Origin: Pseudomonadota bacterium
GTDB taxonomy: Bacteria > Pseudomonadota > Gammaproteobacteria > SURF-13
Assembly (NCBI GenBank): GCA_041695325.1
Contig: JBGFRC010000019.1
Location: 871-64,870, forward strand
Length of the DNA stretch: 64,000 bases
Reading direction: 5' to 3'
In this document: positions 28,508 to 55,669 of the stretch, in pieces
Layout of the letters: every line of letters begins with the position of its first letter
Position numbering within the stretch: position 1 is the stretch's first letter
Position numbers and translations under genes: made by a program
The notes under the pieces: model-generated
The model's input: the letters and a program-made list of their open reading frames with translations, nothing else
Told to the model about the DNA's origin: nothing
The model's database searches: none

Positions 28508-28555
28508 AAGTCCCTCTCCGCCCCCCTTTTTTTATCAAAAAGAGAGGGGGATCTT
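28508..28555. repeat. REP-like element type 1
   Basis: AAGTCCCTCTCCGCCCCCCTTTTTTTATCAAAAAGAGAGGGGGATCTT, between the unknown membrane protein gene and the pilin promoter region. Confidence 0.7.
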
Positions 28556-28570
28556 GACGCGCCGGGTACA

Positions 28571-29218
28571 CTATCCGTAGAGCACCGACAAAACACCCCA
28601 GCCGTGGGTGAACGCAATAAAGCCCAGGCTGGTCAGCGCATACAGGCTGCCTAGCACAATCAGGAGCGCGATGAAGCGTGGGTGACGCGCGGCCAGGCGG
28701 TCAGGGTGGTGGTGCACCCGGTCTAAAAGTTGCGCCAGCTTGTCGCCGCCGCTGTACCAGCGGTTGCTCCATGTTTCAAATGGGCGCAGCAGGCTGGGCC
28801 TGATGACCAGGCAAATACCGACGATCAGCGTCAGCACGCTGGTGAGCGCGATTATAAAAGCGGCCGAGTCCAGCAACCAACTGGCAAGCTGGGGGTTGTC
28901 ATCCTGCATCATGCGCAGGATGGCGGTCTTGTCGTAATTGAAGCCCAGTTGGTATAGCACATAGACCGCGCCCGCGATGAACAGCGCGCCGACCCAACGG
29001 TGGTTGTGGTATACGGTACGCTCGATGTAGCGCGTGGCGTCCATGGGCCGGGTAAGCGATTGCGTGGAAAACCATTTATTGAGCCGCTGACTGAGCGAGA
29101 ACAGCCGCTCAGGGTAAAGGTATAACCACACACCGACGATCAAACTCAGCGCCGCTCCGCCCAGCAGCAGGGCGAGCAGCGTCTCCAGCAGTGTCTCACT
29201 CAAGATGTGCCACTGCAT
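28571..29218 (-). CDS. Hypothetical 4-5 TM membrane protein embedded in the MSHA locus
   Basis: 215-aa ORF, hydrophobic segments LLALLLGGAALSLIVGVWLYL, WVGALFIAGAVYVLY, AAFIIALTSVLTLIVGICLVI, FIALLIVLGSLYALTSLGFIAF. I recognise no family motif. Confidence 0.6.
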   Translation of the reverse strand: MQWHILSETLLETLLALLLGGAALSLIVGVWLYLYPERLFSLSQRLNKWFSTQSLTRPMDATRYIERTVYHNHRWVGALFIAGAVYVLYQLGFNYDKTAILRMMQDDNPQLASWLLDSAAFIIALTSVLTLIVGICLVIRPSLLRPFETWSNRWYSGGDKLAQLLDRVHHHPDRLAARHPRFIALLIVLGSLYALTSLGFIAFTHGWGVLSVLYG

Positions 29219-29227
29219 AAGGCAACC

Positions 29228-29770
29228 TTAACTCAAACTCCAGGCGTAAGACTCCACGGCGTCGAGCCGCACGCCGCGTATCTGTTCCGTGTCTTTGTCG
29301 AACACGCGGTTGCCATTAAGGTCGTCGTAATCCAGACGCACCGCAAAGCGCGCGCGCGGCGGGCCGAGCAGGGTGGTTTTAAAATATTCGCCGTACTTGA
29401 CCCGGTAGACTAATGTACCATCGCGCGTGTCAAAGTACCACTCGCCGCCCTCGATGGCGGCCGGGTCGGGGCCGGAGAGCTCCCCCAGGTAGTTTTTCGG
29501 TTTTTTGCTGAGCCGGTCCATGGGGTTACTGCCCTCCAGCGCATACAGCCCCTTGACATCATCGCGGGCGACATGCGCCGCGACCTCGATGTTCAAGGCG
29601 CTTTGCAGCGCGCCCACCGCGTTTTCCAGGGCGGCGCGCTCGGCGTCCACACGTATTTCCAGCAATTTATCAATGCCGATGACATAGAGGATGCTGATCA
29701 GAATGACGACTATCACCATTTCAATCAGGGAAAAGCCGCGTGCTACCCTCTCCCCTGCCCTCTCCCGCAC
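29228..29770 (-). CDS. Prepilin-motif protein in the MshF position (start uncertain)
   Basis: ARG|FSLIEMVIVVILISILYVIG prepilin-type motif. GTG 29770 gives a 12-aa leader. The ORF stays open up to an ATG at 29917 that overlaps the mshG stop (TAATG). Confidence 0.65.
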   Translation of the reverse strand: MRERAGERVARGFSLIEMVIVVILISILYVIGIDKLLEIRVDAERAALENAVGALQSALNIEVAAHVARDDVKGLYALEGSNPMDRLSKKPKNYLGELSGPDPAAIEGGEWYFDTRDGTLVYRVKYGEYFKTTLLGPPRARFAVRLDYDDLNGNRVFDKDTEQIRGVRLDAVESYAWSLS

Positions 29771-29893
29771 GCGGGAGATGGGGCTAAATAATAAATTCCT
29801 CCTCTGCTTCGCTACACCCTTCACTTCGCTACACCCTTCGCTTCGCTCTTCCCTCTCCCCTCGGGGGAGAGGGATTGAGGGAGAGGGGAGAGG
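29746..29893. repeat. Repeat cluster: two GC-rich type-2 REP hairpins flanking a 17-bp tandem repeat
   Basis: CCCTCTCCCCTGCCCTCTCCCGCACGCGGGAGATGGGG (29746-29783). CTTCGCTACACCCTTC(A/G) x2 plus a partial unit (29807-29850). CCCTCTCCCCTCGGGGGAGAGGGATTGAGGGAGAGGGGAGAGG (29851-29893). Confidence 0.75.
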
Positions 29894-29916
29894 TGGTGTT
29901 GCGCGGGGCGGGTTCA

Positions 29917-31146
29917 TTACGCTCCGCCGCGCGCGGCCTTGGCCAGGTCCCACATGGGCAGGAACACGCCCAGCGCCAGAATCAGCACCATGGCGCCGAT
30001 GGCCACGATCAGCACCGGCTCCACGTTGGCGCTCAAGTTCTTGATGTCATAGTCCACTTCGCGCTCGTAGAATTCCGCCACTTGCTGCATCATGGCGTCC
30101 AGCGCGCCAGTCTCCTCGCCCACGCCCATCATCTGCAACACCATGGGGGTAAACATGCCGGAGAGCGCGGCAGTGCGCGCCACGCTCTCGCCGCGCTCGA
30201 TGCCGTTGCGCATGGCCAGGATGTGGTCGCCGATGTAGCGGTTGTCCACCGCGTTCGCCACCACCGTGAGCCCCTGCACCAGCGGCACACCGGCGCGCTG
30301 TGTCATGGCAAAGGAGCGCGCGAAGCGCGCCAGGGTGGCGCGGTTGAGGATGTCGCCGAGCAGGGGTATTCTCAGCTTGAAGCGGTCCCACGCATAACGC
30401 CCGTGATCGGTTTTGATCCAGGCGCGCAGTCCGATGATGCCGAGCAGCAATACGGCCAGCATATAGGGCCAATAGCCGACAAAGAAATTTGATGTCCCGA
30501 TCAGAATCTTGGTGGCCCACGGCAGTTCGGCCTTGAAGCCCGCGAAGATTTTGGCGAAGGCCGGGATCACCCAGATGTTGATGATAGTGATGGCCACGGC
30601 AATCGCAAACAGCACGATGACGGGATAACGCAGCGCGGATTTGATGCGGTCGCGCCTGTCCTTTTCCGTTTCCAGATATTTTGAAATTTGCAGAAAGGCC
30701 TGATCCAGGTTGCCGCTGTTCTCGCCCACCTGCACGATGCTCACGATCAGATTAGTAAAGATATGCGGGTGGCGGTTGAGAGAGCTGGAGAGATCTCGTC
30801 CGCTTTGCAGGCTGTCCGCCACGTCCTTCAGCGCCTGTTTCAAAATATGCTTGCGCGTGGACTCGGCGAGACCGGTCAGCGCCTGGGTGATGGGCACACC
30901 GGCCTTGGTGAGCGTATACATCTGGTGGCTGAACAGAATCAGGTCTGACAACTCCACCTTGACCTGGCCAAGGCGGCGCTTCAACATGATCAAGACGTCC
31001 GTCTCCGGCCGCGCCTCGACGATGTCTATCGGCGTGATGCCACTGTTGAACAATTGGCTGGCGACGGTGTCGGCGCTCACTCCGTCTATCGAGCCCTTGA
31101 CGAGCTCCCCGCGCAGGCTGCGGCCTTGATAGTTGAACAGCGGCAT
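29917..31146 (-). CDS. mshG: Type IV pilus platform protein (GspF family), MshG
   Basis: 409 aa with two GspF-type repeats and 3 TM segments; follows mshE. Confidence 0.9.
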   Translation of the reverse strand: MPLFNYQGRSLRGELVKGSIDGVSADTVASQLFNSGITPIDIVEARPETDVLIMLKRRLGQVKVELSDLILFSHQMYTLTKAGVPITQALTGLAESTRKHILKQALKDVADSLQSGRDLSSSLNRHPHIFTNLIVSIVQVGENSGNLDQAFLQISKYLETEKDRRDRIKSALRYPVIVLFAIAVAITIINIWVIPAFAKIFAGFKAELPWATKILIGTSNFFVGYWPYMLAVLLLGIIGLRAWIKTDHGRYAWDRFKLRIPLLGDILNRATLARFARSFAMTQRAGVPLVQGLTVVANAVDNRYIGDHILAMRNGIERGESVARTAALSGMFTPMVLQMMGVGEETGALDAMMQQVAEFYEREVDYDIKNLSANVEPVLIVAIGAMVLILALGVFLPMWDLAKAARGGA

Positions 31147-31152
31147 GACGGT

Positions 31153-32931
31153 TTACCAACTGTGCGCCGCTCGCGCGGCGGCCTTTCCGCCGGGAGCAAG
31201 CTCCTGCGCCGGCGGCGGGACTTCTTCCATCTCCTCGCCTTCGCCAAATATGCGCATCACTTCGTCTAGCGTGGTAATGCCGTCCCTGGCATAATCCAGC
31301 GCGCACTCTATCAAGGTGCCGTGTCCGAGGCGCTGTCTGGCAAGCTTCCTGAACTCTTCCACGTCCTCGCGGCGCAACGCATTGCCCAGCGCTTCGTCTA
31401 GCTCCAGCAGTTCGTACACGCCGATGCGCCCCCGATAACCGGTGTTGTTGCAGTGCGGGCAGCCCGCGCCGTGGCGGAACGCCGCGCTCTCCGCGGCATC
31501 GCCCGTGAAACCCTGCAGCCAGGCCAGTGGGTGCGCGTCGGGCTGGTGCGGCTCCGCGCAGGATTCACAGATGCGGCGCACCAGGCGCTGCGCGATCACG
31601 GCATCCAGCGCGGCGGCCACCATATAACCCTCGGCGCCCATGTCGAGCAGGCGCGTGGCGCAACCCACGGAGTCGTTGGTGTGCAGAGTGGACAGCACCA
31701 GGTGGCCGGTCATGGCGGCGCGCAGACCGATCTCCGCGGTCTCCTGGTCGCGCATTTCGCCCACCAGCACGATGTCCGGGTCATGGCGCAGGGCGGAACG
31801 CAGCACGCGTGCGAAGCTGAGGCCGATCCTGGTATTGACCTGCACCTGGTTGATGCGCGGTATGCGGTATTCCACCGGGTCTTCCACGGTGATGATCTTG
31901 CTCTCCGCGCTGTTGATGTGCGACAGCGCCGCGTACAGCGTGGTGGTCTTGCCACTGCCGGTGGGGCCGGTGATGAGCACCATGCCTTGCGGCTTGGTGA
32001 TCAGCCGGTGGAAACGGCGCAGCATGTCGGGCGGCATGCCCAGTTGGTCGAGATTGAGCAGACCGCTGGATTTATCGAGCAAGCGCATCACCACCGACTC
32101 ACCGTCATAAATAGGCATGGTGGAAAGACGCACGTCTATCACCCCGTCCTTGACTTTAATGGCGAAACGCCCGTCCTGCGGCAGCCGCTTTTCCGCGATA
32201 TCCAGACCTGACATGAGTTTCAGGCGCGACGCCAGGACGGAGGCAATGTGCTTTTCCTTCAGCAATCGTTCATGCAGCACGCCGTCTATGCGCTGGCGGA
32301 TGCGCAGCACGGTTTCGTCCGGTTCGATGTGGATGTCGGATGCGCCGATCTGTACCGCATCCTCAAACATGGATTGCAGCAACTTCACCACCGGCGCATC
32401 CGTGACATCGGCGGCCTGCGCCAAACCGGCCAGATCAAATTCGTTGGCCGCCATCTCCTCGCCCAGCTGCTCGGCGAAACTGATGATCTCCTCGGTGCGG
32501 CGGTAGACGGTGTCCAGGGTGCGCAACAGATCCGCCTCACGCACCAAGGCCAGGCGCAACGGCCGTTTCAGTATGCGCGCAAGCTCGTCGTAGGCGAAGA
32601 TGTCGGTGGGATCAGCCATGCCGAGGAGGTACTCGTCCGCCTTCTCCTCCAGCACGATGGCGCGGAAACGGCGCGCGTAAGTCTCGCTCAACAGGCGCAC
32701 GGTGTCGGAAGAGAACTTGTAATACCGGAGGTCAACAAAAGGAATCTGCAACTGGCGCGAGAGGAAATCGAGCAGCCTGTCTTCCTCGATGAAACCGTTT
32801 TCGATCAGCACCCGGCCCAGCTTGCGCCCGCTCTTTTTCTGGATGGCGAGCGCACTGCTGAGCTGAGTCTCGGAGATCTCCTTGTTTTGCACCAGGAGAT
32901 CGCCGAGCCTGATCTTTTTACGTGGGATCAT
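31153..32931 (-). CDS. mshE: MSHA pilus extension ATPase MshE (GspE family) with N-terminal MshEN c-di-GMP-binding domain
   Basis: Walker A GPTGSGKTT, Asp/His boxes, tetracysteine CESC...CPHC. N-terminus RLGDLLVQNKEISETQLSSALAIQ-KKSGR-KLGRVLIENGFIEEDRLLDFLSRQ. Confidence 0.93.
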   Translation of the reverse strand: MIPRKKIRLGDLLVQNKEISETQLSSALAIQKKSGRKLGRVLIENGFIEEDRLLDFLSRQLQIPFVDLRYYKFSSDTVRLLSETYARRFRAIVLEEKADEYLLGMADPTDIFAYDELARILKRPLRLALVREADLLRTLDTVYRRTEEIISFAEQLGEEMAANEFDLAGLAQAADVTDAPVVKLLQSMFEDAVQIGASDIHIEPDETVLRIRQRIDGVLHERLLKEKHIASVLASRLKLMSGLDIAEKRLPQDGRFAIKVKDGVIDVRLSTMPIYDGESVVMRLLDKSSGLLNLDQLGMPPDMLRRFHRLITKPQGMVLITGPTGSGKTTTLYAALSHINSAESKIITVEDPVEYRIPRINQVQVNTRIGLSFARVLRSALRHDPDIVLVGEMRDQETAEIGLRAAMTGHLVLSTLHTNDSVGCATRLLDMGAEGYMVAAALDAVIAQRLVRRICESCAEPHQPDAHPLAWLQGFTGDAAESAAFRHGAGCPHCNNTGYRGRIGVYELLELDEALGNALRREDVEEFRKLARQRLGHGTLIECALDYARDGITTLDEVMRIFGEGEEMEEVPPPAQELAPGGKAAARAAHSW

Positions 32932-34082
32932 GGCGCCGGCGTCTGCGCCTCCAGGCGATTAATCTTGCGTTGCACGAATTCCAGCGCAGCCCCGGTGAGG
33001 GTGCCGGAACTCTGCGCGCGCCGGTAGGCGCTCAGCGCGTCGCCCGGATTTTGCTGCGCCTCCAGCGAAATGGCGAGCCCCATCCACCACACGCCCTGGT
33101 TCGGCTCCAGACGCAGCGCGATCTGGTAAGCGGTCACCGCCTGCCCGTGATCCGAGGCGCGCTGATAAAGGGCGGCGAGCAGCGCGTGGTATTCGGCGTC
33201 CGTGTCGGCCGCCGCCTGCCGCTGCAAAACCTGCAATGCGCCTGAAATATCGCCGCGCTGCGCCAGCAGGCGCGCGTGCAGCTTGCTGAACAGGGTGTAG
33301 CGCGAATCCAACATGGCGCCCGCCGCGAGCAGATTTTCCGCCTCGCTGATGCGGCCGGTCCTCAGATAAATCTCCGTGAGCAGCTCGCGGCTCTTGTGGT
33401 GGCGCGGCTGCTGCGCCAGGGTCTCGCGCAGATTCCGCTGAGCGTCTGCCATCTTGCCGTTTTGCAGCGCCTCCACTGCCTCCTGGTAGCCACGCTCGGC
33501 CAACTGATCAGGCCCTTCAGCGCTGGGTTTTTTGATAGGCGCGGGTAGAGGGACCTGTTCCTCCGCCCGCGCCACACGCGGTTCACGAGGGGGGGCGGCT
33601 TCAACGGCGCTCGCGGGTTTGGCTTCCTGCGGTGCTGGCGCCACAGGCGCAGACCCGACAGGGGAGACAGCCGGCGTCTCAACGGCCGCGGGTTCCGTGA
33701 CCTGGGGCGCCGGCGCTTCCGTAGTGGCAACGGCCGGCGCGGGAATATTTTCTGCGGCGGCCTGCTGCGGGGCAGAGATGCCCTCCGTATCGGTTGCCTG
33801 CTGGGCGGGGGCGGCCGGCGCCTGCACCACGGTTTCAGGAGCCTTGTCAACGGAAGTGCCGCTGCTATACCAAAGATAAACCGTCAGCAATACGGCAAAG
33901 CCCGCCGCGATGCCGCCGAGACGCAGCCAGTTGACCGAGCGCAGGCCGGAGAGCATGTTACCGGATGACGTGCCAGGCTGGGCCGGCCAGGACAGGTTGT
34001 CTAGCACGCCGCCGGGCTTGGAGCCTTGCGCTTGTGCGCGGCGGCTCTCCAGGTCGCGCAGCATCTGGTTGATGAGACTCAT
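32928..34082 (-). CDS. mshN: MshN-like TPR protein
   Basis: MSLINQMLRDLESRRA N-terminus, one TM, Ala/Pro-rich linker, C-terminal TPRs. Position between mshM and mshE. Confidence 0.75.
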   Translation of the reverse strand: MSLINQMLRDLESRRAQAQGSKPGGVLDNLSWPAQPGTSSGNMLSGLRSVNWLRLGGIAAGFAVLLTVYLWYSSGTSVDKAPETVVQAPAAPAQQATDTEGISAPQQAAAENIPAPAVATTEAPAPQVTEPAAVETPAVSPVGSAPVAPAPQEAKPASAVEAAPPREPRVARAEEQVPLPAPIKKPSAEGPDQLAERGYQEAVEALQNGKMADAQRNLRETLAQQPRHHKSRELLTEIYLRTGRISEAENLLAAGAMLDSRYTLFSKLHARLLAQRGDISGALQVLQRQAAADTDAEYHALLAALYQRASDHGQAVTAYQIALRLEPNQGVWWMGLAISLEAQQNPGDALSAYRRAQSSGTLTGAALEFVQRKINRLEAQTPAP

Positions 34083-35023
34083 CGCATTAACAGATAGATT
34101 CCGACGACCAGCACGAACACTCCCGCGACACTGAGCAGCGAGTAGGCAAGCGTGCGCGTCATTGGAACGTGCGTGGTTTGCGCATTATTGCCCAAGGTGT
34201 CCTGTATCGCGGCGCGCATGTGATCGCCCTCTACCACGCGCTTGCCCTGTCCATAGGCCGCCATCAGCGCCTTGTGGCAGATGACATTGACCAGACGCGG
34301 GATGCCCCCGGTCCGGCGGTGGAGCTCGCTGATGGCGTCGGACGCAAACAGACGCCTGCCATTATAGCCCGCCACCATAAGGCGGTGCGATACATAGCCC
34401 TCCACACCGTCTTTGTCCAACGGCTCCAGACGATAAGAAAATACGATGCGCTGCTTGAGCTGCCGCACCGAGGGCTGCTCCAGCACGTCGTGCAGTTCCG
34501 GCTGGCCGAACAGCACTACTTGCAGCAGTTTGCGCTTCTCGGTCTCCAGATTGGTCAGCAGGCGCAGCGTTTCCAGGGTCTCCACCGGCATGGCCTGCAC
34601 TTCGTCCAGGCACACCACCACGCGCTTACCGGCGGCGGAAAACTCCAGCAGCGCGCTGGTGAGCAGCTTGAGCAGTTGATGCTGGTTCAAATTGTCTTCA
34701 TAGGGAATGCGCAGCTCGTCGGCAATCGCCAGCAGCAGCGTGGCCGGCTCAAGATAGGGATTGTGGATATAGGCGGAGACATAATTTTCCCGTTGCAGCG
34801 CGTCCAGCAGCTTGCGGCACAGCAGGGTCTTGCCGGTGCCGACCTCGCCCGTCACCATAATAAAGCCGTCGCCGCTGCGCGCCGCCACCAGCAGGGTATT
34901 GAGCGCCGCGATGTGCGAATCATAGGCGTAAAAGAAGCTGGTGTCCGGCGTGAGCGTAAACGGCGTTTCACGTAGGCCAAAGTGCTCAAGGTAGATGGCA
35001 GTGTCCTCCCAACAAGGAGTCAT
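34079..35023 (-). CDS. mshM: MshM / ExeA-like AAA ATPase
   Basis: HFGLRETPFTLTPDTSFFY, Walker A GEVGTGKT, Walker B VVVCLDEVQ. Confidence 0.88.
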   Translation of the reverse strand: MTPCWEDTAIYLEHFGLRETPFTLTPDTSFFYAYDSHIAALNTLLVAARSGDGFIMVTGEVGTGKTLLCRKLLDALQRENYVSAYIHNPYLEPATLLLAIADELRIPYEDNLNQHQLLKLLTSALLEFSAAGKRVVVCLDEVQAMPVETLETLRLLTNLETEKRKLLQVVLFGQPELHDVLEQPSVRQLKQRIVFSYRLEPLDKDGVEGYVSHRLMVAGYNGRRLFASDAISELHRRTGGIPRLVNVICHKALMAAYGQGKRVVEGDHMRAAIQDTLGNNAQTTHVPMTRTLAYSLLSVAGVFVLVVGIYLLMR

Positions 35024-35127
35024 TTCTCTTCCTTCGATACGGCGCCGAAAGCGCCCAACCAGGACGGGTCTTGATCCCGGTTGGTGCTCGACAACGGCTG
35101 TAAGCCAGGACCGGATTCCGCCAAAGC

Positions 35128-36843
35128 TCAGCGGGCCTCATCAACACCATCGTTCTCCGGAGCGCTACGCTTGATGCTCTTGAAGGATTCCGCGGTGCTG
35201 CGTAGCGATTCCGCCCACTGATGGCCGTCCTCAACCACGGTGGGGCGCAGCAAAATCACAAGCTCGCTCTTGCGCGAGAAGGCGCGCTTGTGGCCCAGCA
35301 GGCTGCCCATGACAGGCCCCTCCGCTCCCGGCACGCCGGCTTTTTCGCCCCGTGATCTATTCTGCATCAGGCCGCCGATCACCACCACCTGATTGTTCGC
35401 GGCGCGCACGATGTTGTCTGACTCACGCACAGTGCTTTTGGCGAGCGGGAAGGTTTGTTTGGTTTCCGTGGTGCCGCTGCTGGTGGTAATGGTCTTGGTT
35501 TGTTCCTCCACCTCGCTTACGGACGGGTGGATGTACAAAATGACCTCACCGTTATCGCTGATCTGCGGGATCACCTCCAGGGCGATGCCGGAGAAAAACG
35601 GCGTGAGTGTAACGCTGGGCGTGACCGTCGTCGTGCCGGTGACGGTGGTCGTGGTGGCGGTGGCGTTGGTGACAAAAAACTCGTCCGAACCCACCTTGAT
35701 GAGCGCTTTTTGATTATTGACCGTGGAGACGCGCGGACTGGACAGCACGTGCACATCGCCCTGCTGCTTCAACAAATCAATGAAGGCATTGAAGTCATTG
35801 AGCGCCAGGGCCAGCGAGAATACACCGTGGGCGGCCGCGAATGGAGTCCCCGCGGCAACGCCCGTGGCGGCCAGAACGCCGCTCACCACGCCCTCGCTGC
35901 TGGTCCTCCGCCCTGTCTGGCCGATCGTGACGCTCTTGCCGTCGGGCTCAAACAACGCGGTCCAGTTGATGCCGGACTGAAAACCGTCGCTCAACTCCAC
36001 TTCCAGTATCTTGGCTTCCAGTATCACCTGGCGTTCAATGGAAATTTGAGTGGAGTTGAGAAACAGTTCCACAGTGCGCAACTCACTGGGCAGGGCGCGC
36101 ACCACCACGACTCCGGACTGCTGACTCACCACCACGCTCCTGCCTTCTCCCGTCACCAAGGCCCTTAGAGCGGTTTCCAGCTCGGTCCAGAAATCGGACT
36201 TGAACTCGGTTCTCACCTCGTTCGGGACGGTTCCCTCGGCCTGGGTAGGCGCGGTAGTTGACGCAGTGGTACCGGTGGTAGTGCCTATCTTTTCCGAGAT
36301 TTGGCCTGAGCTGATGCGTGTTTGCGACTGCCCGATGCGATTCACGCGCAGATAATCCACCTTGAAGATACGCGTCTGAAGGGCGGCGGGCAGTATGTGG
36401 AAGGTGGTGCCGACGCGCTGGAAATCGTAGCCGTACACCTCACGCGCGCTCTCCATGACCTGCGGGATGGTGACTCCTTTCAGATTAAGCGAGATCGCGC
36501 CGGTCACTTCGGGGTGCACCACGACGTTATAGGCGCTGCCCTCCACCAGGCTGAGGAAAAATTCCTGGACGTTGAGACTGTTCACCGTGATGTCGAAACG
36601 CGGTTCGTCACCCGGTCCGCGCAGACTGGCGTCGTCCAGCGGCGGCACCAGCGCCTCCAGCACCTCGCGCGGCGGCTCATCCTTGGCACGCGCTTGCGCC
36701 TCGGACTCGCGCGCGGCGTCTTCCAATGTTTTTTCAATGACCTCGGCGGTGCGCTCGTGTTGCGGAGGCACGGCACAACCCGGCAGCGCGATGGCAAGTG
36801 CCAGCGCCATTCTCCACGGCCATTGCGAAACGGCCTTGCTCAT
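35128..36843 (-). CDS. mshL: MSHA secretin MshL (GspD/PilQ family lipoprotein)
   Basis: Lipobox ALPGC. Secretin core VSTVNNQKALIKVG...VVIGGLMQN...ELVILLRPTVV. Confidence 0.93.
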   Translation of the reverse strand: MSKAVSQWPWRMALALAIALPGCAVPPQHERTAEVIEKTLEDAARESEAQARAKDEPPREVLEALVPPLDDASLRGPGDEPRFDITVNSLNVQEFFLSLVEGSAYNVVVHPEVTGAISLNLKGVTIPQVMESAREVYGYDFQRVGTTFHILPAALQTRIFKVDYLRVNRIGQSQTRISSGQISEKIGTTTGTTASTTAPTQAEGTVPNEVRTEFKSDFWTELETALRALVTGEGRSVVVSQQSGVVVVRALPSELRTVELFLNSTQISIERQVILEAKILEVELSDGFQSGINWTALFEPDGKSVTIGQTGRRTSSEGVVSGVLAATGVAAGTPFAAAHGVFSLALALNDFNAFIDLLKQQGDVHVLSSPRVSTVNNQKALIKVGSDEFFVTNATATTTTVTGTTTVTPSVTLTPFFSGIALEVIPQISDNGEVILYIHPSVSEVEEQTKTITTSSGTTETKQTFPLAKSTVRESDNIVRAANNQVVVIGGLMQNRSRGEKAGVPGAEGPVMGSLLGHKRAFSRKSELVILLRPTVVEDGHQWAESLRSTAESFKSIKRSAPENDGVDEAR

Positions 36844-46801: not shown

Positions 46802-48646
46802 ATGGCTACTCACCACGTTGAGCAGCACGTCCCCCCTTCCGCCGATCAGCCGGAAGCGCAGAGGGCGCAGGCCGGGATGCTCCATGACATCATGGGGCAG
46901 CGATTGCTCACCCCCTTGTTTCAGCCCATCGTCACCTTTCCGGACGGTGCGATTTACGGTTATGAAGCCCTGATCCGCGGCCCATCGGACAGCGTGCTGC
47001 ATACGCCGGGTAATTTGTTCGACACCGCGCTGCGCTCCGGGCAGCTTTCCAGGCTTGACCTGCTGTGCCGTCAAATCACCTTGCGGTCTTATAAGGAACA
47101 GCGTCTCGCCGGCAAGCTGTTTCTGAACATCAATCCGGCCACCCTGTTGCAGCCCGATTTCAAGCCCGGCCTCACCCTGCAACACATGGCGGAGCTGGGA
47201 ATAGGGCCGGAGCAGGTGGTGATGGAGATTACCGAGCACACCCCGGTACACGACTATACGGTGTTGCACAACGCGGCGCTGCATTACAAAGCCATGGGTC
47301 TGGAAGCGGCCATTGACGACCTGGGCGCGGGTTATGCTGGGCTGCGGTTGTGGTCGGAGCTGCGCCCCGATTACGTGAAGATAGACATGCACTTCGTGCA
47401 GGGTATCCACGAAGACAAGGTCAAGCGCAAGTTCATCCAATCCATCCATGAAATCGCGCAGACGCTGAATTGCAAGGTGATCGCCGAGGGCATAGAAACC
47501 AAGGAGGAATATCTCGCGGTTCGGGAGCTCGGCATCCTGATGGGACAGGGCTACTATTTTTCCCGCCCGCACGCCATCGCGCCCCGGATGCTGCCGCAGG
47601 GCGTAATGACGGCCGGGCGCATGCGCAACGCGCACTTTTATCTGCGCAGCTCACAGCGTTTCAGCACCACGGCGGCGCTCGTCCTGGTGCGTGCGCCCAT
47701 CCGCCCCGATCTGCCGTTTCAGGAAGTGGGCGAGCTGTTTTGCGGCGCGCCGCAGTTAAGCTCCATTCCCGTGGTGCGCGAGGACAACGTGCCGGTCGGC
47801 CTGGTGCGGCGTAACCAGTTCATGAACGTCTACGCCAGCCGTTACGGGCGCGAGCTGCACGGCAAGAAACCCATTGCGCGCTTCATGGACAAAAAACCCC
47901 TGATCGTGGATCAGAATCTGCCGCTGGAGAAGCTGAGCAAGCTCGTCACCAGCGAATCGGGGATGCAGATGAACGATGAATTCATCATCACCGCGCGCGG
48001 CCAATACGTCGGCGTGGGCACACTCATCGACCTGCTGCGCAAGATCACCGACCTGCAGGTGCGCAACGCCCGCTACGCCAACCCGCTTACCCTGCTGCCC
48101 GGCAGCGTGCCCATCAACGAATGTCTGGACGGCTTGCTGCAAAAGCGCTGGGGCTTCGTCCTGTGCCATTGCGACCTGGACAATTTCAAACCCTTCAATG
48201 ACGTCTATGGTTACACCCGCGGCGATGAGGTGATTAAATTGCTCGCCGATATTCTCGTTGAGCATGCGCATGACAAGCACGACTTCGTAGGCCACATCGG
48301 CGGCGACGATTTTATCGCGGCGTTTTTGAGCCAGGACTGGCAGCAGCGCTGCCGTTCCATCCTGCAGCGCTTCGAACGCGAAATCCCACGATTCTACGAC
48401 GCCGAGCACCGCGCGGCGGGGGGCATGTGGGCCAAGGATCGGCGCGGTCATGAACTGTTTCACCCGCTCATGAGCCTCTCCATCGCCGCCGTGGAAGCGC
48501 CCGCCGGACGCTTTTCCTCACATCACGAAATTTCCGCGCGCGTCAGTGAAATCAAGCACCTCGCCAAGAGCATGAGCGGCAACAGCCTGTTCATAGACCG
48601 CCGCACGGTGGACTGCTCAGCCGGCCAATTGCCGCTTCCAAATTAG
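46802..48646 (+). CDS. EAL - CBS pair - GGDEF(GGDDF) c-di-GMP signalling protein
   Basis: EAL-domain residues YEALIRG, NINP, EITE, DDLGAGYAGL, KIDMHF, EGIETKEE, QGYYFSRP. Two CBS-like modules. C-terminal NPLTLLPG...DLDNFKPFNDVYGYTRGDEVI...HIGGDDFIAAF. Confidence 0.88.
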   Translation: MATHHVEQHVPPSADQPEAQRAQAGMLHDIMGQRLLTPLFQPIVTFPDGAIYGYEALIRGPSDSVLHTPGNLFDTALRSGQLSRLDLLCRQITLRSYKEQRLAGKLFLNINPATLLQPDFKPGLTLQHMAELGIGPEQVVMEITEHTPVHDYTVLHNAALHYKAMGLEAAIDDLGAGYAGLRLWSELRPDYVKIDMHFVQGIHEDKVKRKFIQSIHEIAQTLNCKVIAEGIETKEEYLAVRELGILMGQGYYFSRPHAIAPRMLPQGVMTAGRMRNAHFYLRSSQRFSTTAALVLVRAPIRPDLPFQEVGELFCGAPQLSSIPVVREDNVPVGLVRRNQFMNVYASRYGRELHGKKPIARFMDKKPLIVDQNLPLEKLSKLVTSESGMQMNDEFIITARGQYVGVGTLIDLLRKITDLQVRNARYANPLTLLPGSVPINECLDGLLQKRWGFVLCHCDLDNFKPFNDVYGYTRGDEVIKLLADILVEHAHDKHDFVGHIGGDDFIAAFLSQDWQQRCRSILQRFEREIPRFYDAEHRAAGGMWAKDRRGHELFHPLMSLSIAAVEAPAGRFSSHHEISARVSEIKHLAKSMSGNSLFIDRRTVDCSAGQLPLPN

Positions 48647-48773: not shown

Positions 48774-49538
48774 GTGGCCAATACGATACTGATCGTGGAT
48801 GACGAGCCGGCCATCTGTGAGATGACCGGCTTCGCGCTCGCGCGCGCGGGCTATGACCACAGCGAGGCGCACAATGCCGAACAGGCGCAGGCGAAAATCA
48901 ACGCCGAACCTCCGCTGTTGATCCTGCTCGACTGGATGCTGCCGGGCTTAAGCGGCCTGGACTTCGCGCGCCGCCTGAAACGCGAGGAGGCGACGCGCGC
49001 GATACCCATCATCATGCTCACCGCGCGCGGCGAAGAGGCCGACAAGATCAAGGGCCTGGAAACCGGCGCCGACGATTACATCACCAAGCCGTTCTCGCCC
49101 AATGAGCTGCTGGCGCGCATCCGCGCGGTGTTGCGCCGCACCGCGCCTCAGGCCACCGACGACGCCGTTGAAATCGCCCACCTGCATCTTGATCCCGCCA
49201 GCCACCGCGTGAGCTCGCGCGGGCACGCCGTGGACATGGGGCCCACGGAATTCCGCCTGTTGCATTTTTTCATGACTCACGCCGGGCGCGTGTACAGCCG
49301 CAGCCAATTGCTCGATCTGGTGTGGGGCAGGAACGTCTACATCGGCGAGCGCACCGTGGACGTGCACATCCGCCGTCTGCGCCTGGCGCTGAAGAAATAC
49401 GGTCACGACCACCTGATAGAAACCGTGCGCGGCTCAGGTTACCGCTTCTTTGCGCCAGCCCAAACCCCCCAGCCGTTCGACAAGCTCACGGCCACCTCCT
49501 TTGAAAAAGGGGTCGAGCGTAAGCGAGGGGGGACTTAA
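48774..49538 (+). CDS. phoB: Phosphate regulon response regulator PhoB, with an atypical ~25-aa C-terminal tail
   Basis: Collinear with E. coli PhoB throughout ([20 protein letters not shown]...[53 protein letters not shown]...[18 protein letters not shown]). GTG start. Confidence 0.93.
49495..49536. repeat. Degenerate REP-like half element inside the 3' end of phoB
   Basis: CCTCCTTTGAAAAAGGGG...GGGGGGACTT resembles the inner hairpin and one outer arm of the type-1 REP. Confidence 0.35.
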
Positions 49539-49827
49539 GGAAGCTCCGAATAAGTCCATCCTGCGACGCACAGGGATGTGCTAGTGTCGCGGGAGGCAGG
49601 ATGCCGTGAGCGACTACTTCTCAGGGCACGGCCGCTCCTGCGCATCCCTGCGCCCGTCTGCCTGCTGCAGGCAGGCGGCATTGGGGCGTCCCTGCCCGGC
49701 AAAAAGCAAAAACGCGGCTATATGATTTCTTGTGGCGCTTTTCTTCATTTTTCAAACACGTATGTGTATGGAAAAAGGGCGGTGCGTCCCTGCACCGCAC
49801 GGAACCTCTGACTTAATCAGAGGTTCC
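49539..49827. mobile_element. MITE-like element, family B copy 2 (289 bp), flanked by TTAA direct repeats
   Basis: Left end GGAAGCTCCGAATAAGTC. The right end reverse-complements to GGAACCTCTGATTAAGTC. TTAA at 49535-49538 and 49828-49831. Core shared with family A. Confidence 0.8.
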
Positions 49828-49854: not shown

Positions 49855-49892
49855 ACCTGACCCCATTGGGTTTGACCCCATTGGGTTCAGGT
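49855..49892. terminator. Long imperfect hairpin built on a GACCCCATTGGGTT direct repeat; possible terminator of the M48-pilin gene
   Basis: ACCTGACCCCATTGGGTTTGACCCCATTGGGTTCAGGT, followed on the minus strand by CTATTTTCTT. 16 nt past the stop at 49908. Confidence 0.35.
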
Positions 49893-49907: not shown

Positions 49908-51116
49908 TTATTGCCCCACTACCTGGCAATAACGCTCCAGATATTGTTTGGCGAGGGTATCGCTTTCACACGCCCACACTTCTCCTTCGCTCCCCTCGAT
50001 ATAGCCCAGCACCACCGACCCCTGCAGCGCCCCCGCCATCGTGACGGTGATGATCCCGCCTTCGCTCACCACGATGGACTGGATATTTTTGCCATAGCCG
50101 TCCGTTACGGGCAGGTTGAGCTCTTCATTGCTGTTGGGCAGGGCGTTATTATCCAGACGGTAGGTGTCAATGGTGGTCTTCACGTGGCCGATTTCGACGA
50201 AGACGTCCGCTACGTTGGCGCGTGTTTGAAACTCTTGATACGCCGGAAAGGAAATCGCGGCGAGGATACCGATGACCACCAGTAAAATAATCATCCCGCC
50301 CGCCGCCCCTCGGCCCAGCCCCAGGCGCGGAATAAACAGCGCCAGCAGCCAGGCGAAAAAATTGCGCCCCGGCAGGCGCAGCGGCTGCTTGGCAATCAAG
50401 GCATCCAGCGTGGCCACGCGCTTGGTGAGCCAGGGATAGTCGCCGATCAGCTCATGAAAGGACATCCAAAAACCGCGTGTGTCCTGGGCGGCATAGTGCT
50501 GATGACTGAGCGTACGCCAGCGTTTGGCGCCCGCCGCCAGCGCCGCTATCCCCGCTTTTGCATCATTCGGATCGGTGACACAGGCAAGACCGTAGCGATC
50601 ACAGGTGTATTCACGCGCCCTGGAGTAGCCCGCGCCGAGCAGCGGCAGCATGCTCGCCGGCCAGGTGAATACATGCCACTTGAGGTGGCCGCGATGTACG
50701 TGCCCCAGCTCATGGCCGATATAAAAGTTAAGGGCGCCCGGTTGCGCCTCCAGCGCGTCGGCGAGCTCGGAATAGAGGGCGATGAAATTACGCCCCAGGA
50801 AGCGCGTGGCGAAGGCGTTGAACGCTCCGTCGGAGCGCAGCAAATAGGCATCAGGAATTTTGTTGATGCCCAGCCTGGCGCAGCAGGCGGCAACGCGCTC
50901 ATAGAGATCGGGAAACTGTTGCGCGGTGATCTTGACCGCCGTTCCCTTCAGATAAGAAATAAAAGCCGACCGGAAAAACAGATAAAAGATAAAAGCCGCC
51001 GCCGCGTAGATCAGCGCGATGCCGGAGGTAACGGCGATTACACCCATCCAAATCAACAGTGAGATGACAACCAGAGTCCAGAACAACGGTTTCTCGTGTT
51101 TATAGACCAGGTTCAT
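49908..51116 (-). CDS. Membrane M48-family zinc metalloprotease fused to a C-terminal type IV pilin-like domain
   Basis: ATG 51116 with a GGGAGGG SD. Two N-terminal TM segments, YIGHELGHVHRGH (HExxH) and REYTCDRYG. C-terminal 129 aa GMIILLVVIGILAAISFPAYQEFQTRA...WACESD...ERYCQ. Confidence 0.8.
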   Translation of the reverse strand: MNLVYKHEKPLFWTLVVISLLIWMGVIAVTSGIALIYAAAAFIFYLFFRSAFISYLKGTAVKITAQQFPDLYERVAACCARLGINKIPDAYLLRSDGAFNAFATRFLGRNFIALYSELADALEAQPGALNFYIGHELGHVHRGHLKWHVFTWPASMLPLLGAGYSRAREYTCDRYGLACVTDPNDAKAGIAALAAGAKRWRTLSHQHYAAQDTRGFWMSFHELIGDYPWLTKRVATLDALIAKQPLRLPGRNFFAWLLALFIPRLGLGRGAAGGMIILLVVIGILAAISFPAYQEFQTRANVADVFVEIGHVKTTIDTYRLDNNALPNSNEELNLPVTDGYGKNIQSIVVSEGGIITVTMAGALQGSVVLGYIEGSEGEVWACESDTLAKQYLERYCQVVGQ

Positions 51117-51159
51117 AAACGACCCTCCCTCGGTTATCAAACGCCGGCTGCAGCCGCTC

Positions 51160-51188
51160 ATCATTCCGCCCCCCTGGAGCGGTGTCAA
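51160..51188 (-). promoter_or_regulatory. Candidate sigma70 promoter for the M48-pilin gene (TTGACA-17-AATGAT on the minus strand)
   Basis: Read by eye in the 83-nt gap after the VIT1 gene. Confidence 0.25.
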
Positions 51189-51199: not shown

Positions 51200-52246
51200 T
51201 CAGCCCAGCCCCGCCCCAAGCGCGCCGCCTATTAAATAAGAGACTGCGCCCGCGCCGGCGCCGATCAGCACCATGCGTGCGCCGCCCCGCAGTGCGCGGC
51301 GGCCGGTGAACAGGCTCAACACCGCGCCCACCGTAAACAGGCTCAAGGCGGCAATCCCCGCGCTGAGCGGCACGGCGCCGGCCGTCTTCACGTTTAAAAC
51401 AAACGGCGCAAGCGGAATCAACGCCCCCGCCGCGAAGGCGAGAAACGAAGACAGCGCCGCGCGTGAAGGCGAGCCGAGCTCGGACGGATTCAACCCCAGC
51501 TCCTCGCGCGCCAGGGTGTCCAGCGCGTGCTGCGGATGTTTCAGCAAGCCGCGCGCGAACTCACGCGCCCGCTCCATGTCCGCGCCGCGCGCCTGATAGA
51601 TGAGCGCAAGCTCCTCGGCCTCCGCGTCGGGATATTCTTCCAGTTCCTCGCGCTCCAGCGCGATCTGGTATTCATACATTTCACGCTGCGAACGCATGGA
51701 GACATACTCACCCGCCGCCATGGACAAGGCGCCCGCCAGCAGGCCCGCAATGCCGGTCAGTAAAATAATCCCCGCATCCGCCGTCGCGCCCGCCACGCCC
51801 ATGATGAGGCTGGTATTGGAGACCAGGCCGTCATTGACGCCGAACACGGCGGCGCGCAGCGTACCGCCGCTGTTCACACCTCGGTGCCGCTGACCGAAGT
51901 CTTGCACCGAGGCGGGCATGGGATGCCCCGCAGCGGCGCCGTAGCCGGCGCTGTAAACCGACAGGCCGCGTACCTTGGCCGCGGCGAGCACCGGGCGCAG
52001 CGCGCGCGGGCCGAACCAGCGCAGCAGCCGCGCCACCAGGCGCACGCGCAGGGAGGGATGGAATTCGTCGGCAACGGGGGTGGCGGCCTCACGCGCCTGC
52101 TGCGCCCAGATGCGCGCCTGCGCTTCGGCGGCCTCGGCCAGCTTTTGGAACAGCGCGCTCTTGACCGGATCACGCTCTGCCTGCGCCAGCACACGGTAAA
52201 GATACGCCGAGCGCATCTCCTCGGCCCAGCTTTCGATTTGCGACAT
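51200..52246 (-). CDS. VIT1/CCC1-family iron/manganese transporter with N-terminal helical (ferritin/erythrin-like) domain
   Basis: FGVNDGLVSNTSLIMGVAGA, AGEYVSMRSQRE, C-terminal TM bundle. MbfA-like architecture. Confidence 0.8.
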   Translation of the reverse strand: MSQIESWAEEMRSAYLYRVLAQAERDPVKSALFQKLAEAAEAQARIWAQQAREAATPVADEFHPSLRVRLVARLLRWFGPRALRPVLAAAKVRGLSVYSAGYGAAAGHPMPASVQDFGQRHRGVNSGGTLRAAVFGVNDGLVSNTSLIMGVAGATADAGIILLTGIAGLLAGALSMAAGEYVSMRSQREMYEYQIALEREELEEYPDAEAEELALIYQARGADMERAREFARGLLKHPQHALDTLAREELGLNPSELGSPSRAALSSFLAFAAGALIPLAPFVLNVKTAGAVPLSAGIAALSLFTVGAVLSLFTGRRALRGGARMVLIGAGAGAVSYLIGGALGAGLG

Positions 52247-52318: not shown

Positions 52319-52555
52319 ATGCCCAAGAAACCACCGCTGGATTTTGAACAAGCCTTGAAGGAGCTGGAGGCGCTGGTCGAGCGCATGGAGCAGGGCGAGA
52401 TCAGCCTGGAGGACTCGCTCAAACACTTCGAGCGCGGCATCGAGCTCACGCGCGCCTGCCAGAGGGCCCTGCGCGAGGCGGAGCAGAAGGTGCACATCCT
52501 CATGGAAAAGGACGGTGCGTCGCGCATCGAGCCTTTTGAACCGGAGGAAGAGTAG
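52319..52555 (+). CDS. xseB: Exodeoxyribonuclease VII small subunit
   Basis: [42 protein letters not shown]. Confidence 0.92.
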
Positions 52556-52590
52556 GCGCCCCTTTCCTCCCGCGTCGCGATCAATTATTC

Positions 52591-53481
52591 ATGTCACTTG
52601 AAGCGCTGCTCAACGAGTATCAGGCGCGCGTTGAGCGCGCGCTGAACGATTGTCTGCCGCCAGCCGACTCCGCTCCCGCGGAGCTGCATCGCGCGATGCG
52701 CTATGCGGTGCTCGACGGCGGCAAGCGCATCCGCCCCGCCCTGGTGTACGCCGTCGGAAGCGCGATGGGCGCCGAGGCGGCCGCGCTCGATGCGCCCGCC
52801 TGCGCGGTGGAGCTGATACACGCCTATTCGCTGGTGCACGATGATCTGCCCGCGATGGACAACGATGACCTGCGCCGCGGCAAACCGACCTGCCACAAGG
52901 CGTTCGGCGAGGCGACCGCCATCCTCGCCGGCGACGCGCTGATCGCGCTTGCGTTTCAATTGCTTGCCCACGGTGCGCCGCCCTCGGTCACCGACTCCAT
53001 GCGCGTGAAGATGATTGAAACATTGGCGCAGGCCAGCGGCTCGCATGGCATGGCGGGCGGACAGGCGCTGGACCTCGCGGCAGTCGGTAAAAATCCAAGC
53101 CTGGCCGAACTGGAGTTGATGCACGTACAGAAAACCGGCACGCTGATCCGCGCCAGCGTGTTGCTCGGCGCCTATTGCAGCCGAGACGCGGATCAGGCCT
53201 TATTGAGCAAGCTTGACCGCTACGCCAAACGCATCGGGCTTGCGTTTCAGATTCAAGACGACATCCTGGATGAAACCGGTGACACGCAAACCCTGGGCAA
53301 ACTCCGCGGCGCGGATCGCGCGCGCAACAAGCCCACCTATCCCGCGCTGCTCGGCCTCAGCCAGGCCAGGCAAATCGCCTGTGACCTGCGTGACGCAGCC
53401 CTGGACAGCCTGACGGGCCTGGACGGCCGCGCCGACGCGTTGCGCCGGCTCGCGCACTATATCGTGGCCAGGACAAGCTAG
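52591..53481 (+). CDS. ispA: Farnesyl diphosphate synthase
   Basis: FARM (first Asp-rich) motif LVHDDLPAMDNDDLRRGKPT and SARM (second Asp-rich) motif FQIQDDILD. Confidence 0.95.
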   Translation: MSLEALLNEYQARVERALNDCLPPADSAPAELHRAMRYAVLDGGKRIRPALVYAVGSAMGAEAAALDAPACAVELIHAYSLVHDDLPAMDNDDLRRGKPTCHKAFGEATAILAGDALIALAFQLLAHGAPPSVTDSMRVKMIETLAQASGSHGMAGGQALDLAAVGKNPSLAELELMHVQKTGTLIRASVLLGAYCSRDADQALLSKLDRYAKRIGLAFQIQDDILDETGDTQTLGKLRGADRARNKPTYPALLGLSQARQIACDLRDAALDSLTGLDGRADALRRLAHYIVARTS

Positions 53482-53718
53482 CAGGCTGTTGAGAAACAGC
53501 CTGCGTGCGGTGCAGGGGCGAGCAGCACTGCTGCGAGCGGGCAAGCCAAGGATGGCTTGCCCTGGTCTTGCAAGCGAAGCAGGATGCGAGAGCGCCGCAG
53601 GCACCGCCATTTTTCAAGCACGCTTCATGTGCTTGAAAAATGAAGCAAAGCGAAAATGATACTGTTCGCTTTGCGAGTTGAAAAAGCCCATGGAAGGGCT
53701 TTTTCAACAACCTGCTAG
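53478..53718. mobile_element. MITE-like element, family A copy 2 (241 bp), between ispA and dxs
   Basis: Same TIRs and terminal hairpins as 42298-42474, with a longer variable segment. Its CTAG terminus contains the ispA TAG stop. Confidence 0.85.
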
Positions 53719-53791
53719 GGTACCCCGGCATTCGGCAATGTGTTAAAGTGACACTTCGCAGTCAGCCGTATCACTCGGTCAGCGCCACCTC

Positions 53792-55669
53792 ATGTACTCT
53801 CTGCTAGACACCGTACACACGCCGGATGACTTACGCCGGCTGGACGAAACCCGGCTCGCCCCGCTTGCCGCCGAGCTGCGCGCGTTTCTGCTTGAATCCG
53901 TCGGACGCACCGGCGGGCATCTGGCCGCGGGGCTGGGGACGGTGGAGCTGACCATTGCGCTGCATTATGTGTTCGACACCCCGCACGACCGCCTGGTGTG
54001 GGACACCGGCCATCAGGCCTACCCGCACAAAATCCTCACCGGCCGTCGCGAGGCCATGCGCACCCTGCGTAAAAAAAACGGCCTGTCCGGTTTTCCCAAA
54101 CGCGATGAAAGCCCGTACGACGCCTTCGGCGTGGGCCACGCGGGCACGGCGGTATCCGCCGCCCTGGGCATGGTGCTGGCGCACTCTTTAGAGGGCGGGC
54201 AGAAGGACGCGCACAAGGTGATCGCGGTGCTGGGCGACGGCGCGCTCACCGCAGGTTTGTCATTCGAGGCGCTGAATCACGCGGGTGATCTCGCCGCGAA
54301 TCTGCTGGTGATCCTGAACGACAACGACATGTCCATCTCACCCAACGTGGGCGGCGTGTCCAATTATCTCGCGCGCGTGCTCTCGGGCAAGATTTACTCC
54401 ACCGTGCGCGAGCGCGGCAAGCGTATTCTTGCCGCGATGCCGCCGGTGCAGGACTGGGCGCGCCGCGCCGAGGAACACGTGAAGGGCATGGTGATGCCGG
54501 GCACGCTGTTCGAGGAAATCGGCTTTAACTATATCGGACCGATAGACGGCCATGACCTGTCCACGCTGCTCACCACGCTGCGTAACATGCGCGCGCTCAA
54601 AGGTCCGCAGTTTTTGCACGTGGTGACGCAAAAGGGCAAGGGCTACCAGCCCGCCGAGAGCGATCCGTGCGCCTATCACGGCGTGGCCGCGTTTGACATC
54701 GAAAGCGGCGAACCGCTGGCAAGGCCTGGCGCCAAGCCCACCTACACGCAGGTGTTCAGTGACTGGCTGTGCGACATGGCGGAGCGTGAGCCGCGCCTCG
54801 TCGCCATCACGCCCGCGATGCGCGAGGGATCGGGGCTGGTCGAATTTTCCGGAAAATATCCCACACGCTATTTCGACGTCGGCATCGCCGAGCAGCACGC
54901 GGTGACGCTGGCCGCGGGCCTCGCGTGCGAGGGCTTAAAGCCCGTGGTGGCGATCTATTCCAGTTTTCTACAGCGCGCCTACGATCAGGTGATACACGAC
55001 GTGGCGCTGCAAAACCTGCCGGTGCTGTTCGCCGTAGACCGCGCCGGCCTGGTTGGCCCCGACGGCCCCACGCACGCGGGCGCGTTTGATTTGAGCTTTC
55101 TGCGCTGCGTGCCGAACCTGGTCCTCATGACGCCGGCTGATGAAAACGAATGCCGCGCCATGCTCACCACCGGCTTTATGCACAACGGCCCCTCGGCGGT
55201 GCGCTATCCGCGCGGCGCCGGCCCAGGCGCCGCCATCAAGCCCGCATTGACCGCACTCCCCATCGGCAAGGCACAAGTGCGGCGCAAGGGGAAGAAAATC
55301 GCGCTGCTCGCCTTCGGCGCCACGTTACAACCCGCGCTCGCGGCGGCGGACGAAATCAACGCCACGGTCATCAACATGCGCTTCGTCAAACCACTGGATG
55401 TAAATCTCGTGCTACAGACCGCGGCCACGCACGAGCTGCTGGTCACGCTGGAAGACAATGTAGTCATGGGCGGCGCGGGCGGGGCCATCGCCGAATGCCT
55501 GGCACAGGCGGACGTGCAGGTCGCGTTGATCAACCTCGGCTTGCCCGACCACTTCATCGAACAGGGTACACGCGAAGAATTGCTCAGTGACTGCGGCCTG
55601 GATGCCGCGGGCATCCTGCGCGCGGTGCGCCTGCACTTTGAACAGCAGCGTGCGGTTCAACTAAAATAG
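53792..55669 (+). CDS. dxs: 1-deoxy-D-xylulose-5-phosphate synthase
   Basis: [55 protein letters not shown]. Confidence 0.97.

Follow-up and report, generated by a model that had tools for sequence, protein, structure and literature searches.

Introduction

What is a type IV pilin doing at the end of a membrane protease? This question is raised by a single gene on the minus strand (49908-51116) of a 64,000-nucleotide stretch of DNA, here called the window, from contig JBGFRC010000019.1 of the gammaproteobacterial assembly GCA_041695325.1 (Pseudomonadota; SURF-13), in which one unbroken open reading frame (ORF) of 402 codons joins a zinc metalloprotease of the M48 type to a pilin-like domain. 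In this article, I will argue that the gene is almost certainly real, conserved and stand-alone, and that it encodes a three-span inner-membrane protein made up of an N-in transmembrane (TM) hairpin, an HtpX/BlaR1-like M48 protease, a Gly-rich linker and a type IVa pilin module. What the pilin module is for can be answered far more tentatively: the reading that I favour, while giving it somewhat less than an even chance, is that the module is a mimic which brings the protease to the membrane pool of pilins or to the platform on which type IV filaments are assembled. The preliminary description of this DNA, made from its letters alone, knew of no family with an M48-pilin architecture, and the full-text literature searched here likewise holds no published description of an M48 protease joined to a pilin or pseudopilin. 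The architecture is unstudied rather than unseen, being abundant in databases, where automatic annotation gives it names such as 'M48 family metalloprotease' and 'Zn-dependent protease.../PilA'; what is new is the pilin or pseudopilin module, previously undescribed, on a membrane M48 protease.

Two halves in one reading frame

The ORF opens with an ATG at 51116 and closes with a stop codon at 49908-49910, and reading the sequence bears out the earlier claim of an uninterrupted frame of 402 residues with a good Shine-Dalgarno sequence; the motif strings cited in the preliminary description are also all found in the translation. An alternative TTG start at 51188 would add 24 extra codons; orthologues use the ATG (MNLVYKHEK...). 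The coding sequence and its parts are as follows.

49908..51116, minus strand: complete coding sequence of the M48-pilin fusion protein (402 residues plus stop), from the ORF reading, Pfam and the homologue search
51123..51131, minus strand: Shine-Dalgarno sequence GAGGGAGGG, 6 nucleotides 5' of the ATG, read from the sequence
50940..51095, minus strand: N-terminal TM hairpin, with TM1 (residues 8-29) and TM2 (residues 33-59) separated by a 3-residue uncharged loop, from hydropathy, K/R counts and model helices
50382..50939, minus strand: M48 zinc-metalloprotease core, residues 60-245, probably facing the cytoplasm, from PF01435, invariant residues and Foldseek
50700-50714, minus strand: HELGH zinc motif in the M48 core
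50610-50612, minus strand: Glu169, third ligand candidate in the M48 core
50304..50381, minus strand: short hydrophobic helix FFAWLLALFIP, then the basic Gly-rich linker PRLGLGRGAAGG, residues 246-271, from conservation, charge and model
50148..50303, minus strand: pilin alpha-1 helix, residues 272-323, its N-terminal half forming the third TM segment (mature-pilin residues ~6-27), from the PilE alignment, profile and model
49911..50147, minus strand: predicted periplasmic pilin head, residues 324-402, a four-stranded sheet with a C-terminal disulfide loop, from Pfam, Foldseek, invariant Trp/Cys and the ratio of nonsynonymous to synonymous substitution rates (dN/dS)
49968-49970, minus strand: Cys383, in the C-terminal loop of the pilin head
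49926-49928, minus strand: Cys397, in the C-terminal loop of the pilin head

In Pfam, the two halves are matched by Peptidase_M48 (PF01435; 56.5 bits, cut-off 20.3) and by Pilin (PF00114; residues 298-397, 34.2 bits, cut-off 22), T2SSG falls below threshold at 14.9 bits and covers alpha-1 only, and N_methyl (PF07963) gives no match even at E<=1; the NCBIfam models add a weak and far sub-threshold likeness to a PpdD-type pilin, to GspG and to HtpX. The N-terminal M48 module with two TM helices that was proposed at the outset is one on which Pfam, hydropathy (residues 8-56 are hydrophobic, consistent with two N-terminal TM helices) and the structural model agree. The motif FYIGHELGHVHRGH holds His135, Glu136 and His139 and the motif SRAREYTCDRYG holds Glu169, and these residues together with Asp173 are invariant in 59 of the 59 family sequences of the alignment A1, which is the basis here for both the invariant residues and the AlphaFold2 model, so that the predicted zinc site of the M48 half is expected to be active. 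A conserved YPWLxKR motif precedes the FFAWLLALFIP helix, and the junction has the family consensus FVPRLGxGGG, beyond whose GGG the linker differs among the members of A1 in length and in sequence. This linker stands in the place of the prepilin leader and of pilin residues 1-5. The pilin-like part of the fusion reads GMIILLVVIGILAAISFPAYQEFQTRANVADVF...VWACESDTLAKQYLERYCQ; the equivalents of Gly14, Ala18, Pro22 and Tyr24 in its alpha-1 helix are invariant in A1 (Gly283 and Pro291 occupy the Gly14 and Pro22 positions), and so is each of Trp381, Cys383 and Cys397 in the C-terminal loop of the head (n=59), which means that the terminal Cys...Cys pair first noticed in this one protein is a fixed property of the family. 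The model built on A1 has a mean predicted local distance difference test (pLDDT) score of 87.3 and begins with helices 8-29 and 33-59, followed by the protease core, a linker of low confidence (pLDDT 64-66), a 52-residue helix (272-323) and four strands.

A real gene, inherited as a unit

A protein search covering about 5.8 billion protein clusters returned 2,089 homologue clusters of the full fusion, and 115 of the best 120 homologues carry both Pfam domains in a protein of about 400 residues, at identities of 47-90%. The source assemblies are many and independent, and isolate genomes are among them (Thiorhodovibrio frisius, Rugamonas, Duganella, Massilia and Variovorax); the nearest relative (90% identity) lies in the gammaproteobacterial metagenome-assembled genome QZKM01 (L006) and is colinear with the window protein. 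With colinear orthologues and both domains in nearly all of the best homologues, the fusion stands as a true one and not as two genes. A scan of one genome per species found about 410 loci in the Beta-, Gamma-, Zeta- and Deltaproteobacteria and in the Magnetococcales, among them Massilia, Duganella, Rugamonas, Variovorax, Aquabacterium and Caldimonas in the Burkholderiales, Methylococcaceae, Cellvibrio, Paraglaciecola, Thiohalophilus and Nevskia in the Gammaproteobacteria, and, elsewhere, Magnetococcales, Mariprofundaceae and Desulfatitalea. Some members of only ~320-380 residues (P0036 and P0094; loci L033, L044, L052, L070, L072 and L073), from Acidiferrobacterales, some Massilia and Desulfatitalea, seem to be without the beta-sheet head; P0036 and P0094 visibly retain the pilin alpha-1 helix, and the short loci listed show only shortened matches.

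The dN/dS values computed between the window gene and its two nearest orthologues are 0.12-0.17 for the protease, 0.17-0.23 for the alpha-1 helix and 0.12-0.18 for the pilin head, and the head is therefore a working domain and not a decaying remnant. Over the 59 members, the identities of protease and head co-vary (Mantel r 0.68, a value reached by 0 of 999 permutations), which argues that the two halves have been inherited together; shuffling of heads between proteases was considered and rejected, since no pair among these members combines a similar protease with a dissimilar head. The pairwise identity is 63% for the protease vs 30% for the head, and the column identity is 71% for the N-terminal half of the alpha-1 helix (alpha-1N) and 63-76% for TM1 and TM2. 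A word-indexed search with the C-terminal 130 residues alone, in which 80 candidates were scored, returned 3 free pilins at 29-34% identity and is uninformative, having missed the orthologue with 90% identity.

A pilin fold without prepilin features

The likeness of the C-terminal module to type IV pilins, as first proposed from the letters, is confirmed by Pfam, by profile searches of the PDB and by Foldseek. Residues 275-364 align to residues 6-95 of Neisseria PilE (phmmer, E 1.7e-10), and against the PDB sequences the family profile finds PilE at E 4.7e-23, with a match that begins at about mature-pilin residue 5-6, and also PAK-type Pseudomonas PilA across the whole head; when the model is compared with the PDB by Foldseek, PilE structures rank first (probability 1.0, TM-score 0.58-0.62 on the target). 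With the type IVa major pilins (Neisseria PilE, Pseudomonas PilA, E. coli PpdD; PF00114) the fusion has in common an alpha-1 helix from about residue 6 with Gly14, Pro22 and Tyr24, a four-stranded head, a C-terminal disulfide loop and, as far as the charges of the fusion predict, an N-in topology with a periplasmic head. A recent copy of the window's own MSHA-type pilin it is not, the identity to that pilin amounting to 28% over 39 alpha-1 residues only.

However, unlike these pilins the fusion lacks a class III signal peptide, Gly-1/Phe+1, the N_methyl motif and Glu5, a membrane protease of 270 residues is covalently attached to the N-terminus of its pilin part, and its gene is unlinked to assembly genes. 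The lack of the G|F(T/S)LIE motif and of Glu5 had already been pointed out for this protein and now extends to its relatives: among the 153 family proteins whose alpha-1N can be recognised, pilin position 5 is never Glu or Asp and almost always Ser, Gly, Ala or Thr, positions 1-5 are mostly Gly, Ala or Ser, and a prepilin site of this type (G[FMLIV][TS][LI][ILV]E) occurs in 0 of the 153. The fusion has the pilin fold but is without three defining features of a functional type IV pilin: a class III signal peptide, Glu5 and linked assembly genes. Since the fused module offers PilD no cleavage site and has neither a free N-terminus nor Glu5, normal maturation or entry into a filament should be impossible for it, a prediction that I hold with the same near-certainty as the three-span architecture.

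The arrangement in the membrane can be read from the charges. Positive charge is clustered in the N-tail, after TM2 and just before alpha-1N, where the segment carries a mean of 3.1 K/R vs 0.5 D/E per sequence, and the loop between TM1 and TM2 is uncharged; the positive-inside rule would therefore place the protease on the cytoplasmic side of the membrane and the pilin head on the periplasmic side, and the invariant Cys pair of the head is compatible with an oxidising periplasm. Charge distribution and model are both compatible with a cytoplasm-facing protease, a TM link and an extracytoplasmic domain. This predicted topology would be that of an unassembled pilin, with the protease where the leader peptide would be. 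It also changes one part of the preliminary description, which had a pilin fold displayed next to a protease: a membrane-held pilin fold stands, and 'next to' does not, as a cytoplasmic protease and a periplasmic head would be on opposite sides of the membrane.

One protease scaffold, two kinds of filament head

When the protease half alone (residues 1-265) was searched exhaustively, it gave 2,223 clusters at 50% identity, of which 348 reach E<=1e-30 and 1,070 reach E<=1e-10, mostly proteins of 400-500 residues. Hidden Markov models made from the pilin part of A1 detect a pilin-like C-terminus in about half of the best 150 scaffold members, and in the remaining members of these 150 the TM helix is followed by C-terminal regions of other kinds, among them a Sel1 repeat and unknown domains. 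Ten more distant members (P0215, P0217, P0227, P0229, P0230, P0235, P0245, P0246, P0250 and P0254; loci L085-L091) end in the motif DPFDGxPYGY...WSxGPDG...DDI and have a head of the GspG type, the major pseudopilin (PF08334) of the type II secretion system (T2SS), unlike the window protein, whose head is of the PilE/PilA type. In five of the six tested, Pfam T2SSG matches this motif-bearing C-terminus at a sub-threshold 14.5-19 bits, and a profile of these C-termini (A2) finds GspG in the PDB at E 2.8e-6 (3g20) and six more GspG structures (2kep, 1t92, 5wda, 3gn9, 3fu1 and 4lw9), down to E 0.021. Taken with the pilin-headed family, this match means that one protease scaffold has been paired with two kinds of type IV filament subunit head, and this repeated pairing is the strongest hint that it is functional rather than accidental.

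Genomic context

The surroundings of the gene were surveyed by clustering the ORFs of 85 loci and by reading seven annotated neighbourhoods. The recurring neighbours (a TonB-dependent receptor, a spermidine-synthase-like protein, a sigma-54 two-component pair, a hybrid kinase and a nicotinamide mononucleotide transporter) reflect genus-level synteny only, and conserved operon partners were rejected on this ground. The idea of a mobile gene was also dropped, there being no full-length plasmid match and two partial M48 matches only, as was that of a defence gene, for which PADLOC has no match.

In the window, the fusion gene has a VIT1-family gene upstream, a convergent OmpR-type regulator and an EAL-GGDEF gene downstream. 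The VIT1-family product (51200-52246, minus strand) is of the iron/manganese transporter type with an N-terminal extension of ~130 residues, and its placement is common only to the two closest orthologous loci; the EAL-GGDEF gene (46802-48646, plus strand) and the gene for the OmpR-type response regulator (48774-49538, plus strand) converge on the fusion gene. Further off, at 52319-55669 (plus strand), ORFs resemble, by reading of their translations, an xseB-ispA-dxs trio (small exonuclease VII subunit, polyprenyl synthase and 1-deoxy-D-xylulose 5-phosphate synthase). Two signals flank the fusion gene, both consensus matches only, and with 10 of 12 consensus positions matched, the promoter-like site is of a kind of which shuffled sequences are expected to give 0.7.

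51160..51188, minus strand: sigma-70-like promoter match, TTGACA-17-AATGAT, in the 83-nucleotide gap after the upstream VIT1-family gene
49779..49798, minus strand: terminator-like hairpin with a T-rich tail, downstream of the fusion gene

A 15-mer, AACCCAATGGGGTCA, is perfectly duplicated in tandem at 49858-49887 (minus strand), 21 nucleotides past the stop of the fusion gene, where none would be expected by chance.

The window also holds an MSHA-type pilus cluster (22613-36843, minus strand), more than 13 kb from the fusion gene.

35128-36843, minus strand: secretin with Secretin_N_2
34079-35023, minus strand: AAA_22 MshM-like gene
32928-34082, minus strand: TPR MshN-like gene
31153-32931, minus strand: ATPase with an MshEN domain
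29917-31146, minus strand: T2SSF platform gene
29228-29953 and 27888-28499, minus strand: N_methyl pilins
25850-27823, minus strand: O-antigen-ligase-like gene with Wzy_C and TPR, beside the pilins

The last of these could encode a pilin glycosylation enzyme. Near this system with its MshEN-type ATPase, the window also has cyclic di-GMP (c-di-GMP) genes.

What the pilin module may do

If the module is a pilin mimic, it would dock the enzyme through pilin-type contacts of alpha-1N and of the head, either in the inner-membrane pool of pilins or pseudopilins or on a type IV filament assembly platform, at the site that receives pilins, and the docked protease would cut prepilins, pilins or platform proteins in segments that are exposed to the cytoplasm or lie at the interface, with quality control or turnover of these proteins as the outcome. 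A coupling of pilus contacts to proteolysis had already been suggested in the preliminary description, as pure inference, and it still has that standing. Mimicry, over a mere anchor, is favoured by the pilin hallmark residues of alpha-1N, which have been kept while the head drifted to 30% pairwise identity, by the GspG-type heads on the same M48 scaffold in distant relatives, and by the window organism having at least an MSHA-type pilus system. Inner-membrane proteins that read the pilin pool by intramembrane contact have been described for PilS and PilA (Kilmury and Burrows 2016, as cited in PMC6058289) and for PleC and PilA in Caulobacter (PMC7196804).

Several observations weigh against this reading. 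Mature pilins show almost nothing to the cytoplasm, which leaves the substrate doubtful. TM1 and TM2, at 63-76%, match alpha-1N in conservation, and so the high conservation of alpha-1N is by itself no proof of pilin contacts. Other scaffold members have unrelated C-terminal regions (a Sel1 repeat, unknown domains), and in some lineages the beta-sheet head has apparently been lost (P0036, P0094, L052, L072 and L073), so that the head is dispensable to the scaffold. Finally, in the 85 clustered loci and the seven annotated neighbourhoods no pilus or T2SS genes adjoin the fusion, and the genes with GspG-type heads likewise stand alone.

Among the alternatives, the first is a one-component transducer in the manner of BlaR1, which I consider unlikely, and in which a periplasmic head of pilin type would sense pilins, surfaces, DNA, glycans or some other ligand, and alpha-1N would relay the binding and switch on the protease to cut itself and/or a soluble regulator encoded elsewhere. 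The attraction of this idea lies in the predicted plan of the protein, since in BlaR1 (PMC9834060), too, TM helices come first, then a gluzincin domain that faces the cytoplasm, and a last TM helix leads to an extracytoplasmic domain. BlaR1 is also the best full-length structural neighbour of the N-terminal part in Foldseek (8ext; 285 aligned columns, probability 0.98, E 0.045), ahead of the HtpX domain (3cqb) and then BepA, distant family members have sub-threshold matches to Peptidase_M56 (13-20 bits, cut-off 31), the family to which BlaR1/MecR1 belong, and the different C-termini that one scaffold can have (pilin, GspG-like, Sel1, unknown) resemble a set of exchangeable sensors. However, the structural match is weak (TM-score 0.24-0.30, root-mean-square deviation 12 A), the window protein itself has no Pfam match to Peptidase_M56, its extracytoplasmic domain has a pilin fold and not the penicillin-binding domain of BlaR1, and neither a BlaI/MecI-type repressor nor any other conserved partner adjoins the gene in the loci examined. 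The fusion resembles BlaR1 in plan only.

About as unlikely is a generic quality-control protease like HtpX, for which the pilin module would serve as a TM anchor with a small, stable periplasmic domain and no present tie to pili or secretion. In HtpX (M48B) as in the fusion, an N-terminal TM hairpin leads into an HExxH...E zinc protease of PF01435 that faces the cytoplasm (the orientation in the fusion being predicted), and such a role would suit a gene that stands alone amid unrelated housekeeping genes, in a family whose best conserved part is the protease (63% vs 30% pairwise identity for the head), where some lineages have apparently lost the head sheet and others have non-pilin C-termini, and where weak matches to the HtpX models of NCBIfam are found. 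These matches are also the problem: the best HtpX equivalog score is 33.8 bits with a cut-off of 341, some 10-fold below, and the fusion, by its sequence scores, is a member of Pfam M48 and not an HtpX orthologue. HtpX has two extra hydrophobic segments between HExxH and Glu, which the fusion lacks, with only ~30 residues between the two, and, unlike HtpX, the fusion continues C-terminally with one more TM helix and a domain predicted to be periplasmic; a search of PDB sequences with the protease half found no M48 structure at E<0.1. Against such a role there is also the head, on which purifying selection (dN/dS 0.12-0.18) is no weaker than on the protease; Gly14, Pro22, Tyr24 and the D-region cysteines of the pilin module are invariant, and a second clade has a GspG-type head with its own signature motif kept.

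A third proposal, that the protein is a self-processing pilin precursor whose M48 domain cuts the Gly-rich linker and frees a PilD-independent, unmethylated pilin-like protein, strikes me as very improbable. The protease does sit exactly where a prepilin leader would, prepilin sites follow Gly as the Gly-rich linker would allow, and the low confidence of the model in the linker suggests flexibility; but Phe1 and Glu5 are required for normal filament assembly of pilins, and the released product would be without both in 153 of 153 members, next to no assembly machinery, from a linker that beyond GGG varies in length and sequence, and in some members with apparently no head to release. As for a protease gene and a pilin gene merged by a frameshift or misassembly, the chance is close to nil, given that the colinear fusion recurs in thousands of independent sequences, isolate genomes included, and that the pilin part has no start, leader or first five residues of its own.

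Implications

The mimic reading has a broader form, in which the pilin-headed and GspG-headed branches make up one dedicated family of pilin-mimicking proteases that polices type IV filament systems through subunit-like docking and cleavage at the cytoplasmic face, and this form is the more doubtful of the two. If it is true, the family would supply type IV pilus and T2SS biology with a missing arm, one of turnover and quality control or one of signalling. The inner membrane is where pilins and pseudopilins are stored and through which they are recycled, no dedicated protease is known to clear damaged, excess or unprocessed subunits (no search aimed at this point was made), and a conserved protease built covalently onto a pilin that should be unable to polymerise is an obvious candidate for such clearance, or, in an alternative role, for a pilin-pool sensor with a proteolytic output. 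These possibilities are directly testable, since Variovorax, Massilia, Duganella, Cellvibrio, Paraglaciecola and Thiorhodovibrio, all of them cultivable, have members of the family. It is also evident from the family that selection can maintain the pilin fold and the alpha-1N helix outside any filament, and through this fusion, membrane proteolysis may be linked to pilus or secretion machines.

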